From an uncultured Acidobacteriota bacterium (GTDB lineage Bacteria > Acidobacteriota > Thermoanaerobaculia > Multivoradales > SZUA-115): a DNA stretch of 64,000 nt. The first letter of the stretch is position 1; each line of letters begins with the position of its first letter. The stretch is taken from positions 160,001 through 224,000 of the forward strand of contig CAWDVR010000005.1 in assembly GCA_963805975.1 (NCBI GenBank), given 5' to 3'. Made by a program: the position numbers and the translations under genes. The notes under the pieces were generated by a model. The model ran no database searches. It had not been told where the DNA came from and saw nothing but the letters and a program-made list of their open reading frames with translations. Positions 24,906-63,900 of the stretch are shown here, piece by piece.

Positions 24906-27900
24906 GCTGCGGTCCCGCGGCACCGGCAGGAGCGGAGGTACCGGGGCGACAGCGTGGAGGGCCGTGCCTTCGCCGGTCCGCGAGCGCAGGGCCTCTTCCA
25001 CGCGACCGGCGAGCGCGGCCACGGTGGGCGCTTCGAAGAGCGCCCGCACCGGCAGCTCGATGCCCGCCGCCTCGCGCAGGCGCGAAACGACCTGGGTCGC
25101 GAGGAGGGAGTGGCCGCCCAGCTCGAAGAAGTGGCCGTCGGCCCCCACCTGGTCGTGGCCCAGCACTGCGGCATAGAGCCCGGCCACCAGCTCTTCGAGC
25201 GGCGAGGCCGGCGCCGCTCCGCCCGTGGGCTCGAACATCGGGGCGGGGAGGCGCTTGCGGTCCACCTTGCCGCTGGGGTTGAGCGGCAGGGCGTCGAGCA
25301 CCACCACGAAGGCCGGCACCATGGGCTCGGGCAGGCGCCGGCGGAGAGCGTCCCGGAGATCGGCGCCCCTCACCCCAGCCCCCTCCCCGCTGCCGCGGGG
25401 CGAGGGGGACGGAAGGGAGGCATTCTCGTTCCCTCTCCTCGCTTGCGGGGAGAGGGCTAGGGTGAGGGGTTCTGGCACCACGTAGGCCACCAGGCCCCGG
25501 CCTCCGGGCAGGTCCTCGCGCAGCACGGCCACGGCCTGGCGGACGCCCGGCTGCGCGAGGAGCGCGGCCTCGACCTCGCCCAGCTCGATGCGGAAGCCGC
25601 GCAGCTTCACCTGGAAGTCCAGCCGCCCCAGGAACTCGATCTCGCCGGAGGCCAGCAGGCGAGCGCGGTCCCCGGTGCGATAGGCGCGCGCGCCGGGCTC
25701 GCCGCTCCAGGCATCGGGCACGAAACGCTCGGCGGTGAGGCCCGGCCGGCCGAGGTAGCCGCGGGCCAGGCCGCGCCCCGCCAGCAGCAGCTCGCCGGGC
25801 ACGCCGGCCAGCACACGCGTGCCGTCTCGTCCCACCACGAAGGCGGAGGTGCCTGGCAGCGGCCGGCCGACCGTGACGCGGCGCTCGCCTCTCGGCACCA
25901 GCGTGTAGGTGGAGTAGGTAGTGTCCTCGGACGGCCCGTAGAGATTGAGCACCCGCTGGACACCCGGCCGCTGGTAGGCGCGGTGGACCAATTCGGCGGG
26001 CAGCGCCTCGCCGGCGAGGTTGATGGTTGCGAGCGAGGCCGGCAGCTCGCCTTCGAGGAGGCCCGCGAGGGCCGAGGGCACGGTGTTGAGCAGCGTGACT
26101 CGCTCGCGCTGGGCAAGCTCGGGCAGCGCGAGCGCATCGCGGGCCAGGAGCACGCTGCCGCCGGCCGCGAGCGGGGCGAAGAGCTCGAACACCGAGAGGT
26201 CGAAGTTGATCGACGTGGAGGCGAGCACACCGGAGAGCTCGCGCGCCGAGAAGGCCGTGCCGGCCCAGTCGAGGAGCGCCACGGCGCTCCGGTGGCGGAT
26301 GGCCACGCCCTTGGGCCGGCCCGTGGAGCCGGAGGTGTAGATCAGGTACGCGAGGCCCTCCGGCGAGACGTCGGAAGACGAGGACGGCTCGCCGATCTGC
26401 TCGGCAGAAGGAGAAAGGAGCGCGAGATCCGTGGCGAGCTTCTCCGCGTGGTGGTCCTCGACGATCACGGCCGCGACCTGCGAGTCCTCGACCAGAAAAG
26501 CCAGGCGCTCGGCCGGGTAGCCGGGGTCGAGGGGGACGTAGACGGCGCCGGCCTGGAGCGTGCCCAGGAGCGCCGCGACCAGCTCGGGCCGGCGGTCGAG
26601 CATGACCCCCACGCGGGCCTCCGGCGCGAGACCGAGGGCGCCGAGCCGCGCGGCCCAGAACGCGGAGCGGCCGGCGAGATGGGCGTAGCTCCAGTGCTCG
26701 CCGGCGCCCACCAGGGAGATGCGCTCGGGCAGCTCGACGGCGCGGGCCAGGGCGGCCTGATGGAGAAGCAGGCCAGAGGCCGAGGGCTCCGGCCGCTCGT
26801 TCCATTCGACGAGTGCCTGTTGGCGCTCGGCGTGGGAGGCGAGGGGGATCTCTGCGGCGGGAGCGTTCGGAGCGGCGACGGCGGCATCGAGCAGTCGCTC
26901 GAGCTGCCCGACGAGGCGCATCAGGGTGGTCGGGTCGAAGAGGTCGGAGGCGTAGTTGAGCACGCCGGAGAGTCGTCCGTCCGTCTCCTCCAAGGCGAGG
27001 GTGAGGTCGAACTTGGCGGTGTCGGTGCCGGCGGCGAGCGGTTCGAGGGCCAGCTCGCCCAGCGCCGGGCGCTCGTGCGGGGCGTTCTGGAGGACGAAGA
27101 CGGCCTGGAAGAGCGGGGTGGTGGCGAGGCTCCTCTCCGGCGCCAGCTCGTCGACCAGCTTCTCGAAGGGCACGTCCTGGTGGGCGTAGGCGTCGAGGCT
27201 CGCCTCGCGCACGCGCTGGACGATCTCGGCGAAGGTGGGCTCACCGGAGAGGTCGGTGCGCAGCACCAGGGTGTTGATGAAGAAGCCGATCAGGCCCTCG
27301 ACCTCGACTCGGGTTCTGCCGGCGATGGGGGTGCCGATGACGAGGTCCTGCTGGCCGGTCCAGCGCGAGAGGAGGACGTTCCAGGCGGCGAGCACGGTCA
27401 TGAAGAGCGTGGCACCGTGCTGGCGGGAGAAGGCGTGGATCGAAGCCACCAGCGGCTCGGGGAAGCTCAAGTCGAGGCTCGCGCCGCGCTCGCTGCGCAG
27501 GGCGGGTCGCGGCCGGTCGGTGGGCAGCTCGAGCACGGCGGGAGCGCCCGCGAGGCGGGAGCGCCAGTGGGCGATCTCGGCTTCGAGCGCCTCGCCGGTG
27601 AGCCAGCCGCGCTGCCAGGCCGCGAAATCGGCGTACTGCACGGGCAGCGGCGGCAGCTCGGGCTCTCGGCCCTGGGCGAGATCGGCGTAGAGCGCCCCCA
27701 GCTCGCGCACCAGGATGCCCCGCGACCAGGCGTCGCTCGCGATGTGGTGCAGGGTGACGGCGAGGGCGTGGTCGTCCGCTCCCGCACGCAGCACGGCGGC
27801 GCGCAGCACCGGTCCGCGGGCGAGATCGAAGGGCCGGCGGGCCTCGGCCTCGACGAGGCGGAGCACAGGGCGCTCGTCGTCGGAAAGCGCGGTCAGGTCC

Positions 27901-60900: not shown

Positions 60901-63900
60901 CGCGCTCGCGCCTCAGCACCTCGGCCCACAGGCCGGCCAGCACTTCCTCCACCGGGGTGGAGGGCGCACGGTACGGCGCCGCCTCGGCATCGCCGCCAGC
61001 GGCCCCCACCTCGATCGTTGCGAGGGCCTTGCGGTCGGCCTTGCCGCTGGGGGAGAGGGGCAGGGCGTCGAGCACGGCGAAGTAGGCCGGCACCATGTGC
61101 TCGGGCAGTCGCTCGCGGAGCGCGGAGCGCAGGGCGTCGGGCGAGAGAGAGCCCCTCACCCCAGCCCTCTCCCCGCTGTCGCGGGGCGAGGGGGCCGGAA
61201 GGGAGGCGCTCTGGTCTCCTCTCCCCGCTTGCGGGGAGAGGGTTAGGGTGAGGGGTTCCCTCTCCGGCACCAGGAAGGCGACGAGCGCCGGGCCGCCGGG
61301 AAGGTCGATGCGGAGCAGCACCGCCGCCTCGCGCACGCCGGGCAGCTCGGCGAGGGCGGACTCGATCTCTCCCAGCTCGATGCGGAAGCCACGGAGCTTG
61401 ATCTGGAAGTCCAGCCGGCCGAGGAACTCGACCTCGCCGTCGGGCCGCAGGCGGGTGCGGTCGCCGGTGCGGTAGAGACGGGCGCCGAGGGAACCGCTGG
61501 CGCCGTCCGGCACGAAGCGCTCGGCGGTGAGAGCGGGCCGGTCCCAGTAGCCGCGGGCGAGGCCGACACCGGCGAGGAAGAGCTCTCCCGGCACGCCGAT
61601 GGGCACGGGGCGCAGGCCCGGATCGAGGACGAAGACGGCGAGGTTGGCGATCGGCCGGCCGATGGGGACGATAGCCGAGATCCTCGCCCGGCGGGCAGGG
61701 ACGGAAGGTGACATCGACGGCCGCCTCGGTGGGGCCGTAGAGGTTGTGGAGCGCGACGAAGCGCCCTCGCCCAGATCCTTCGCTGCGCTCAGGATGACAA
61801 GCGGTAGGGTCTACCATTCCCGAGCCGTGGTGGGCGGCACCGTGCCCCAACTTGTCATCCTGAGCCAAGCCCTCGTCATCCTGAGCGCAGCGAAGGATCT
61901 GGCTGGGCGGGCCTTCGACGCGCGAGAGCCGTTCGTGGAACCGCCGCACCAGGTCTCTCGGCAACGCCTCGCCGCTGGCCATCACCTGGCGCAGCGCGAG
62001 GTCACCCGCCTGCTCCTCCAGGCCCGGATCGTCCAGGAACGCCTGGAGCATCGAGGGCACGAAGTGGGTGGTGGTGATGCGCTCCTCGGCCATCACCTGG
62101 CGCAGGTAGGCCGGGTCTTTGTGGCCTTCGGGTCGCGCCATGACCAGCGTGGCACCGGTGGCGAGCGGCCAGAACAGCTCCCACACCGAGACGTCGAAGC
62201 TCGCCGGGGTCTTCTGGAGGACGCGATCGCCGGGGCGCAGGTCGTACTCGTGCTGCATCCACCGCAGCCGGTTGGCGATGCCGCGGTGGGTGTTCATCAC
62301 CCCCTTGGGCCGGCCGGTCGAGCCCGAGGTGTAGATGACGTAGGCCAGGTGGCTCGGCGTGACGGCGGAGGAGTTCTCTCTCGCCGTCTCCACATCGCTC
62401 TCGATCGAGACCGGAACTGGCCGTACGGACTGGGGCGCCCAGTCGAGCGTCTGCCCTTCGGCGGTCAGAACCAGAAGCTCGCGAGCACTGCCCGCCCCGT
62501 CCCCGCTCGCCAAATCCTCGGCCATGCCCGCCAGTCGCTCGGGCGGGTAGGAGGGGTCGAAGGGCACGTAGGCGGCGCCTGCCTGGAGGATGGCGAGGAG
62601 GCCGACCGACAGCTCGAGCGAGCGCTCGATGGCGATGCCCACGGCCACGTCCGGCCCGGCGCCGAGGTCGGTCAAGCGGGAGGCGAGGGCCTGGGCGCGG
62701 CGGTCCAGCTCGGCGTAGGAGAGGGCCGCGCCCTCGGCCACCACGGCGACCGCGTCCGGGGTGCGGGCGATCTGCTCGGCGAGCATGCCGTGCAGCAGCT
62801 CGCTGCCGTCGTAGCTCTCCGCCGTGCCGTTCCACTCGGCCACCGCCTGCTGGCGCTCGGCCGGCGAGAGCAGCGAGACCGCGTCGTAGCGGCCGTGCGG
62901 GTCCGCGGCGAGCGCGGCGAGCGCGCGCTGGTAGTAGCCGGCCGCGGCGGCCATCAGCGAGGCGTCGAGGTCCGAGGCCCGGTAGTTGAGGGAGAAGGAC
63001 ATGCCGCCGCCCGCCGGATCGATCTCGAAGTGCGCGGTGAGCGGGAAGTTGGTCTCTTCGTAGCCGCGGTAGCCCAGCACCTCGGCCTGCGCTCCGCCGC
63101 CGGTCGCCAGGCGCGCCTCCACCTCCTGGTAGACGTGGTAGTGGATGAAGTTGAAGACCGACTCGAAGAGCTCCCGCCCGCCCTGCCGGCGCTGCAGCTC
63201 GACCAACGGGTAGCGGCGGAAGGGGAGGAGCGCCCGCTCGCGTTCGAAGGTCTCGAGCACCAGCGCTTCCCAGGTGCCGCCGCCGAGCTTCAGGCGCAGC
63301 GGCAGCGTGTTGAGGAACAGGCCCAGGGTGCGCTCACCCTCGGCGCGCTCCGGCCGGCCGTGGACGATGACGCCCGCCACCACGTCCGCCTGGCCGGAGA
63401 GGAGCGCCAGCACCCGCAGGTGGACGGCGAGGAACACGCTCTTGACCGGCACGGCGAGCGCGCGCGCCAGGGCCTCGACGCCGCGGCTGAGCGCGGGGTC
63501 GAGGGCCACGTCGAGCGACACGGAGTGCCCATCTGGGCGCCCGTCGCGCTCCGTGCTCGTCCCGCGCGCCTGCCGGGGCAGCTCGGCGAGGGTGCTGCCT
63601 TCGAGCTCGCGGTCCCAGAAGGCGTGCGCCTCGGGGGAGGCCAGCACCTCGCGCTCCAGCGCCACGAACTCGCGGAAGGGCACCGGCGGCGGGGGCGCCG
63701 TCACAGCCTGGGCGGCGTGCCCGCCGGCCAACTGGGTGGCGTAGCTCTCGAACAGCTCGGAGAGGAGCGAGGCGGCGCTCCAGCCGTCGAGCACCGAGTG
63801 GTGGAAGGAGAGGCTGAATTGAAAGCTCTCCTGGGGGAAGCTCTCCCCCGCCTCGTCGCTCCCCAGGCGGTGTACCAGGAAGCGGGCGAGGGGCGCCCGC

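Follow-up and report, generated by a model that had tools for sequence, protein, structure and literature searches.

In-frame hairpin repeats of three families in the adenylation domains of a giant nonribosomal peptide synthetase cluster from an uncultured Acidobacteriota bacterium

Introduction

Rickettsia palindromic elements (RPEs; Ogata et al. 2000, 2002) are in-frame insertions within protein-coding genes that are predicted to be compatible with the fold of the host protein (PMC10969869). A comparable situation is described here for a stretch of 64,000 nucleotides, the window, which corresponds to positions 160001-224000 of contig C5 in the genome of an uncultured Acidobacteriota bacterium (G000), and in which hairpin repeats of three unrelated families, A, B and C, lie in frame within the adenylation (A) domains of a giant nonribosomal peptide synthetase (NRPS) cluster. 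As in the Rickettsia elements, dispersed palindromes sit in frame in protein genes and are absent from homologues, the latter being documented by filled and empty modules, both paralogous and orthologous. RPEs, however, are scattered over unrelated genes, whereas here 20 of 26 in-frame copies are found in one modular cluster, the families involved are three, and one insertion site is common to many paralogous modules. The inserts are copies of three genome-wide, mostly intergenic hairpin repeats, probably tolerated as passengers, and the commonest of them has probably been multiplied by ordinary gene conversion between modules.

Several other described systems are of relevance, and the comparisons made with them, as with RPEs, refer to passages of the papers cited. 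CGTC-type repetitive extragenic palindromic (REP) sequences consist of a CGTC or TGTC tag, an 8-9-bp stem that begins with AT, a loop of 4-5 nt and a tail that is mostly CCA; they are mostly intergenic and often form inverted pairs, and intragenic REPs are already known (Di Nocera et al. 2013, PMC3733652). The small GIY-YIG genes of Ssn nucleases are bracketed by Ssn-related motifs (Chenal et al. 2025, PMC11893778). The repeat referred to as BoxC, PIT or TM_ECO has a strict consensus with a first loop of 3-6 nt; its copies in Escherichia coli MG1655 are always intergenic and have not been tied to mobile elements, and a link between BoxC motifs and instability of the surrounding E. coli DNA has been described (Holder et al. 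2015, PMC4666352). Vsr and a group I intron homing endonuclease belong to the clade in which DUF559 is placed (PMC3424549). Regarding the host proteins, the a2-a3 and a8-a9 regions are known sites of A-domain interruption (Lundy et al. 2020, PMC8341866), and sub-domain tracts located between A2 and A5/A6 are exchanged between paralogous A domains, with a change of specificity and without the involvement of such repeats (bioRxiv 10.1101/2021.06.23.449585). In-frame palindromes in Rickettsia, intragenic REPs and recombination between A domains are thus already known; what this locus adds is a measured concentration in one cluster, apparent conversion tracts revealed by comparing a pair of genomes, and the family C repeat. 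No title or abstract describing either a pairing of BoxC with DUF559 or REPs in frame in NRPS loops was found in a search outside of which most subscription journals lie.

Hairpin elements in the window

The window holds the last 13 modules of a cluster of about 90 kb, which hosts the repeats and runs on past the window to about C5:270000; the genome, of 70% GC, is 96% complete in six contigs and contains 79 AMP-binding matches. The positions of the A-domain core motifs, which are intact, were assigned from a motif map that we take to be correct. Alignment of the 13 modules places ten elements in A-domain coding DNA, all on the minus strand and open in the frame of their module, and all ten of the in-frame, stop-free hairpins of three families announced by a sequence-only reading of the window (which had counted at least that many) were recovered. 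The cluster and its elements are listed below.

19521..64000, minus strand: giant NRPS cluster, last 13 modules (C-A-T, that is condensation, adenylation and thiolation domains, with a thioesterase-like tail), from Pfam AMP-binding, Condensation and PP-binding matches and the assumed motif map
25366..25469, minus strand: family A (BoxC-type) inverted doublet in the a8-a9 loop of the Asub subdomain, module 12; reads EPLTLALSP...SGEGAGVRG; fold z -5.27
28576..28592, minus strand: family A right-arm remnant at the Asub site, module 11; full doublet in the orthologous module of the congeneric genome G001
34955..34971, minus strand: family A right-arm remnant at the Asub site, module 9, which is a 95% identical duplicate of module 11
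38158..38190, minus strand: Asub site of module 8, sequence that may be a degenerate remnant of family A; sits on a frame break and is not counted among the ten
41355..41500, minus strand: family A doublet with a longer spacer at the Asub site, module 7; fold z -6.63
51153..51271, minus strand: family A doublet at the Asub site, module 4; the structure model gives this loop low confidence
52201..52279, minus strand: inverted pair of family B (CGTC-type REP) units within the a2-a3 loop before motif A3, module 4; fold z -11.63
54547..54568, minus strand: family A left-arm remnant at the Asub site, module 3; its sister module 1 has a full doublet
55090..55160, minus strand: family C in the loop before motif A5, module 3; core 55106-55144 within copy-specific 16-bp inverted arms; fold z -5.50
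61152..61255, minus strand: family A doublet at the Asub site, module 1; fold z -4.96
61771..61902, minus strand: family B pair that encloses part of a third unit, before motif A5 (GEAL-NLYGPTE), module 1; fold z -8.46

Family A is represented by four full doublets and three arm remnants, all at a single position after the last Asub strand (LVAYVV...), so that seven of the ten insertions amount to one site, the a8-a9 loop, and the ten are not independent. The loop before A5 that holds family B in module 1 is the same that holds family C in sister module 3, and at C5:258867 it contains a family C copy in another reading frame, which argues for three separate arrivals in one permissive loop. A rescan of bases 1-20000 and of the C domains within the window yielded no family matches, in line with the sequence-only reading. 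Restriction to A domains, however, does not hold for the cluster as a whole, since copies occur just past the window in a C domain (C5:247721), a T-C linker (C5:251358) and a C-A junction (C5:263042). Folded as single-stranded DNA, seven of the ten elements gave z values from -4.96 to -11.63, with no equally stable shuffle among 200, against +1.2 for one control stretch treated in the same manner.

The structure of the module 4 A domain, predicted from an alignment of 103 rows, matches solved A domains (mean pLDDT 88.5, pTM 0.87). In this predicted model pLDDT drops below 50 only at residues 184-191 and 512-544, which are the two inserts of the module, and mapping of the inserts, a check that had been proposed, places both in low-confidence loops; the inserts are predicted to lie in surface loops. 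The left flank of the Asub insert ends at residue 485 of TioS (PDB 5wmm) and its right flank begins at residue 886, and the insertion site therefore corresponds to the loop in which TioS carries its methyltransferase. Of the three A-domain sites occupied here, two (a2-a3 and a8-a9) are known regions of interruption (PMC8341866). The inserts differ in being repeat-coded loops of 25-55 residues rather than catalytic domains, and the pre-A5 loop is not among the sites named in the passages of that work. Alignment and model together show that copies persist where loops are variable (a2-a3, pre-A5, a8-a9, linkers and one C-domain loop), and only with the frame kept; the added 25-55 residues may be disordered and nearly neutral.

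Repeat families and their nuclease genes

Family A, with 120 exact-pattern matches in G000, fits the BoxC/PIT/TM_ECO consensus CCCTCNCCC-loop-GGGNGAGGG-N3-GGGNGAGGG, inverted doublets included. With a first loop of 3-6 nt (strict) the consensus has 17 matches in G000, and with one of 3-12 nt (relaxed) 112; the window copies comprise five relaxed matches and no strict one, and as their first loops measure 8-10 nt, family A appears to be a longer-stem variant of the BoxC/TM_ECO motif. By its consensus it is the BoxC/triplex motif with a longer first hairpin, which may fold into an intrastrand triplex, the computed folds being of the Watson-Crick type. The three-block consensus and the inverted doublets are common to family A and to the E. 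coli repeat as described in the passages of PMC4666352; family A differs from it in its longer first loop, in its location in frame within genes, and in bracketing DUF559 genes. Genome-wide, the lengths of family A doublets fall in all three phases (14/10/21), and the copies of the cluster keep the frame. The outer flanks of A pairs show little extra inverted similarity (2.5 vs 2.2), unlike those of family C. A family A doublet is also found in frame in a gene that we take to be NuoF-like, in an Acidobacteriota record (L118) and in a metagenome contig (L134).

The lone DUF559 gene of G000 (C3:920182-920535), whose nearest structure is 3hrl (E 3e-24), carries family A hairpins at both sides. 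A survey of 61 genomes produced 22 full-length DUF559 matches, 20 of which were retrieved; A-type hairpins were present at 14 of these 20 loci and at none of 11 weak-match or control loci (ten weak matches and one locus of UvrC size), figures that express an association and not a test statistic, since DUF559 loci from related genomes are not independent. A DUF559 gene of G001 (L028) is flanked by the long-stem hairpin type. The nuclease link suggested by the sequence-only reading is therefore substantiated for family A at the level of gene arrangement, and because the hairpins bracket these genes, Vsr-like DUF559 enzymes are a likely source of new copies.

Family B has 89 motif matches in G000, and together with family A it supplies the 16-mers that are most over-represented in the genome. 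It displays a TGTC or CGTC tag, an 8-bp stem that begins with AT and forms six of eight pairs, and a 5-nt loop; tails are CTG in most copies. The proposed resemblance to CGTC-tagged REPs consequently stands for tag, stem and loop and not for the CCA tail. Among clusters that contain family B only, 50 of 56 lie outside the NRPS cluster and not in frame, and 16 inverted pairs were counted, with little extra inverted similarity in the outer flanks (6.3 vs 4.9). Three small GIY-YIG genes were found in five relatives, two of them bracketed by family B (L032 and L037, in G002 and G006) and the third by family D (see below), while no UvrC-size GIY-YIG locus (0/5) carried B or D. These small genes are Ssn-like by arrangement, single-stranded DNA cutting beside the motif being predicted by analogy, and small GIY-YIG enzymes would thus be the likely makers of new family B copies. 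Family B therefore resembles CGTC-tagged REPs and Ssn-related motifs (PMC3733652, PMC11893778) in tag, stem, loop, inverted pairs, intergenic bias and the bracketing of small GIY-YIG genes, and intragenic dimers that add 20-30 amino acids are described there. It differs from them in its imperfect stem, the lack of the CCA tail and the absence of an Ssn-like gene from G000; concentration in a single NRPS cluster is not described in the passages of these two papers. Of the candidate mobilisers that had been proposed, DUF559 was borne out for family A in G000 and small GIY-YIG for family B in relatives, whereas REP-associated tyrosine transposases (RAYTs) were not: no Y1_Tnp (PF01797) match exists in the 96% complete G000, and the GTAG tag of REP/REPIN-RAYT systems is absent from families A, B and C.

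A fourth family, D, a textbook CGTC-type REP with the CCA tail, forms 38 clusters in G000 and is absent from the window; it lies in frame in a PMT-type transferase gene of G000 (L115, C3:926577) and in NRPS loops of G002 and G006 (L090, L107).

Family C had been defined by its 16-bp inverted repeat, a definition that had to be replaced, as the part common to its copies is the 39-41-bp core between the arms; 29 copies with two core subtypes occur in G000. When the 16-bp arm was used as a probe, only this site and two chance hits were retrieved. The arms are copy-specific and yet complementary (score of 18.5 with own flanks vs 3.4 with swapped flanks), and they covary: 95% of 280 cells are paired and 12 of 14 pairs show double changes, a result matched by none of 500 shuffles, with slid controls at 36-55%. 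Family C is thereby the reverse of a REP, with a conserved loop and a variable stem, and it is often located directly behind a stop codon. It is found mainly in the genus of G000, a relaxed pattern having matched 7 of 151 genomes of the order. No partner gene was identified: the genes flanking 18 copies are unrelated as judged by eye, and one relaxed-pattern locus showed no nuclease-like frame. No match of family C to a described repeat family was found, and an Rfam search for all three families, covering the window and locus L001, matched only a cobalamin riboswitch at gathering score.

Distribution in the genome

With a purpose-built hexamer model of coding DNA (85.5% of G000), 208 clusters of families A-D were classed, of which six were dropped as chance matches and 202 kept; among the six, C1:18148 is a real intergenic B pair and C6:88371 may be a degenerate B. 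The NRPS genes of C5 contain 20 of the 202 clusters, other genes contain six in frame by strict scoring, and 176 are not in frame. The 20 copies of the NRPS cluster (16 scored in frame and four more within genes beside a frame break) represent 11 sites. In-frame hosts elsewhere are genes for an HrpB helicase, an FtsX permease, an asparagine synthase, an extracellular contractile injection system (eCIS) core protein, a PMT-type transferase and a zf-HC2 protein. Among the 176 that are not in frame, 107 follow a stop codon, a stop codon lies within 23, no gene runs towards 32, and 14 are read through. The expectation of many dispersed, mostly intergenic copies is hence confirmed by the genome counts (A 120, B 89, C 29).

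Repeat density amounts to 0.22/kb within the cluster, as against 0.23/kb for non-coding DNA and 0.0013/kb for the rest of the coding DNA; an equal density in all genes, which would have removed any role for the NRPS setting, is thus not observed. Eleven of 17 independent in-frame sites lie in the cluster vs 0.33 expected (p 2e-15, with six in-frame copies outside), and the comparison of 11 sites with none in 127 kb of other NRPS DNA of G000 gives p 6e-5. The enrichment is genuine, but it is a property of this cluster rather than of NRPS genes at large: a role general to NRPS or specific to A domains is not supported, given the empty state of the four other NRPS regions and the copies in a C domain and linkers. 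A frame of 14,225 NRPS codons elsewhere in G000 is also free of copies. NRPS DNA of four other genera, about 350 kb with 79 A3 motifs, yielded three in-frame elements that are convincing, two of family D and one of family A, at other sites.

Two further outcomes of the repeat search concern other motifs. An over-represented 16-mer family, 'E', was discarded once recognised as DNA encoding motif A3, and G000 contains one array of about 28 alternating units of two additional motifs ('F' and 'G'), which could be CRISPR-like or a coding tandem array.

Spread of the Asub insert between modules

The separately assembled G001 offers a second view of the Asub insert, which is carried by 11 of 17 modules in G001 and by 8 of 22 in G000 (a count that leaves out two modules with frame breaks, one of which has a stub); one a2-a3 insertion is also shared by the two genomes. 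The frame is kept in all 11 G001 carriers, which are of many lengths and lie on contigs without internal frame changes. Aligned sister modules of the two genomes exhibit full, half and stub forms, which fit contraction between repeated arms.

Several observations suggest that the insert has travelled with its neighbouring code. In a tree of the flanks only (a quick tree of 82 columns), 18 of 19 carriers fall in one group of 27 rows (SH-aLRT 85), with 9 label changes vs 16.9 after shuffling. Among 39 modules, carriers with divergent cores are more alike beside the insert (0.78 vs 0.67; 0 of 2000 permutations). Carriers are spread over 13 different core groups. The excess is largest within about 30 codons of the site and is also present further upstream, where tracts may be longer or modules related. 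Five orthologue pairs differ in the insert; in three of them, identity to the orthologue falls from 82-85% upstream to 56-60% over the 48 bp left of the insert, and the left flank of the carrier best matches other carriers (73-92%); one tract measures about 50 bp and one about 200 bp, and the other two pairs show no clear tract. All four insert-free orthologue pairs maintain an identity of 75-88% with no drop. Replaced flanks beside an insert are a signature of gene conversion, and the insert has likely been copied between modules together with neighbouring code, which lends weight to the earlier suggestion of module recombination around it. As in the intragenomic recombination of NRPS modules described in bioRxiv 10.1101/2021.06.23.449585, tracts appear to be exchanged between paralogous A domains; they differ from the tracts of the passages of that work in being short, located in Asub and centred on a repeat.

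The exact Asub junction had nine matches in the species-genome collection, two of them in NRPS genes, and none in NRPS genes among 14 metagenome matches. The two NRPS matches are identical to G001 modules and thus not independent, and the site-specific Asub insert looks confined to the genus of G000.

Frame breaks and assembly

The cluster had been considered a single 43-kb gene. As assembled it is not intact, being broken by 26 one-base indels (23 insertions and 3 deletions with respect to paralogous modules) and by further frame changes near 61.7 kb and 21.4 kb. All but one of the 26 indels lie between 30.6 and 45.4 kb; the single call in module 5 is within an open frame and may be an alignment artefact.

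30597..45400, minus strand: patch of one-base indels that breaks modules 6-11; 22 insertions and 3 deletions inside, probably assembly errors

Across the cluster region, 26 frame switches were counted. The orthologous contigs of G001, nine stretches with about 70 kb of coding DNA and the same inserts, contain no frame change within NRPS genes, the exceptions being two frame changes that resemble gene boundaries. Since the breaks are concentrated in the patch and absent from the orthologues, they are taken as probable assembly errors. Another NRPS region (G000:C2:955000-968000) has 19 frame switches in 13 kb (15 per 10 kb) and is either a second error patch or a true pseudogene, and yet another has none over 43 kb. 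No public sequencing run with more than 10% of the words of the stretch was found, nor was an RNA run containing it listed. At about 21448 (minus strand) a frame switch falls within the terminal thioesterase-like region, the 3686-aa open reading frame 19521-30581 continuing in a non-coding frame beyond.

Competing explanations

The reading of the inserts as tolerated passengers spread by ordinary gene conversion envisages that nucleases would create new copies of families A and B, that a single family A insertion in the a8-a9 loop, predating the split from G001, would have moved from module to module along with 50-200 bp of adjacent code, and that the element may subsequently have grown or shrunk between its repeated arms to yield full doublets, half doublets and stubs; the direction of transfer is a matter of interpretation. 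A number of observations weigh against this account. Regarding the source of copies, the motif is missing from six of the 20 DUF559 loci (in two cases the gene is near a contig end), the hairpins at the resident DUF559 gene of G000 have a stem one pair shorter than that of the NRPS copies, and no small GIY-YIG (Ssn-like) gene was found in G000. Regarding distribution, three of the seven read-through clusters inspected (of 14) may be intragenic, and the in-frame count outside the cluster is thus 6-9, the p values having been computed for 6. The four other NRPS regions of G000 (127 kb) hold no copies, a looser scan giving scattered single weak hits; one of them, the insert-free region C2a, also has orthologues in G001, and residence time alone is consequently not the reason for colonisation of a single cluster. 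The account gives no reason for the confinement to one cluster; guesses would be local seeding with later spread in cis, or a higher level of transcription. Regarding transfer, 41 of the 72 forks of the flank tree are open, and one of three pairs in which both orthologues carry the insert also has a low left flank (0.62). All five differences in presence have the insert in G001, and the three tracts resemble gains, which fits biased spread as well; with only two genomes compared, gain and loss are not polarisable, and the stubs and half elements of G000 point to loss as well.

Biased spread would take the form of a homing-like drive, in which a DUF559 nuclease, or the folded hairpin or triplex itself, starts a break whose repair copies element and flanks into empty modules. 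This is a less probable alternative. The flanks are co-converted in three of five differing orthologue pairs, all apparently gains, and the abundance of carriers in G001 and their dispersal over core groups are in keeping with it. Homing enzymes cut the empty allele, whereas the nuclease gene here is flanked by the element itself; in addition, the element is absent from A domains of other G000 NRPS regions, and the stubs and half elements of G000 bespeak erosion. The kinship of DUF559 with Vsr and a homing endonuclease (PMC3424549) and the instability associated with BoxC (PMC4666352) are compatible with a drive, but ordinary conversion yields the same tracts, and A domains are known to recombine within a genome in the absence of such repeats (bioRxiv 10.1101/2021.06.23.449585). 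It is accordingly only tentatively that BoxC hairpin and DUF559 could be regarded as a two-part selfish system that homes into the same megasynthetase loop and drags 50-200 bp of Asub code along.

A cluster under relaxed selection, partly decaying or rarely used, could gather repeats at the intergenic rate, and its repeat density indeed equals that of non-coding DNA, with 26 frame switches in the region; one B pair (C5:246092) and two remnants coincide with a frame break or lie close to one. This is improbable: the breaks are patchy, with 23 insertions vs 3 deletions, and do not occur in the orthologous coding DNA of G001 (about 70 kb), which has the same inserts; moreover, the inserts are found only in loops, the core motifs are intact, and the A doublets of the cluster keep the frame whereas those of the genome at large fall in all phases.

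An adaptive role, in which hairpins would stabilise a long mRNA or pause ribosomes for domain folding, or in which the added peptides would tune the movement of Asub, would account for very stable hairpins strongly concentrated in one long cluster, and for at least two insertions that are common to G000 and G001 and have thus been kept since the split. It appears more doubtful still, as orthologous modules, and likewise sister modules, vary in presence, length and sequence of the inserts, one and the same loop is filled by three unrelated repeats and by family C in two reading frames, and the 14,225-codon NRPS frame of G000 does without copies. That the inserts reflect an assembly artefact or simple local inverted duplications can practically be set aside: the assembly has patches of indel errors and no public run covers the stretch, but the same inserts occupy the same sites in G001, each family has tens of dispersed copies, and the arms of family C covary, which also answers the earlier proposal that such findings would distinguish repeats from local duplication.

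Neighbouring genes

Other features of the window lie apart from the hairpin elements. The T-C linker of module 2 contains a short tandem expansion, ALTIE x3 (57494-57529, minus strand). A cobalamin riboswitch (10906-11155, minus strand; Rfam RF00174, 88.7 bits) precedes genes for a TonB receptor, a periplasmic binding protein, an ABC ATPase and an FecCD permease (6167-10774); the FecCD match spans only profile positions 5-183, and the gene may be frameshifted. At 11780-15460 (minus strand), 4 kb from the end of the NRPS cluster, a 1226-aa frame unites a prolyl oligopeptidase (S9) with a metallo-beta-lactamase-fold region. An 801-aa frame (17099-19504, plus strand), which is convergent with the end of the NRPS, combines PALP (pyridoxal phosphate enzyme) and ATP-grasp L-amino-acid-ligase domains; its product may supply or attach a non-standard residue.

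Implications

As natural markers, the inserts allow gene conversion from one NRPS module to another to be seen, tract ends included, in two related genomes, and the loops that accept 25-55 foreign residues (a2-a3, pre-A5, a8-a9, the T-C linker and one C-domain loop) should be useful for engineering. The pairing of BoxC with DUF559 provides a candidate enzyme for a repeat known since the 1990s. If the spread of the Asub insert is neutral, the locus is a tidy example of known processes; if it is driven, a cause for module shuffling would have been named. Were homing to be true, a mobile repeat would be a direct and targetable engine of NRPS module recombination, marking the very loop through which tailoring domains enter A domains.

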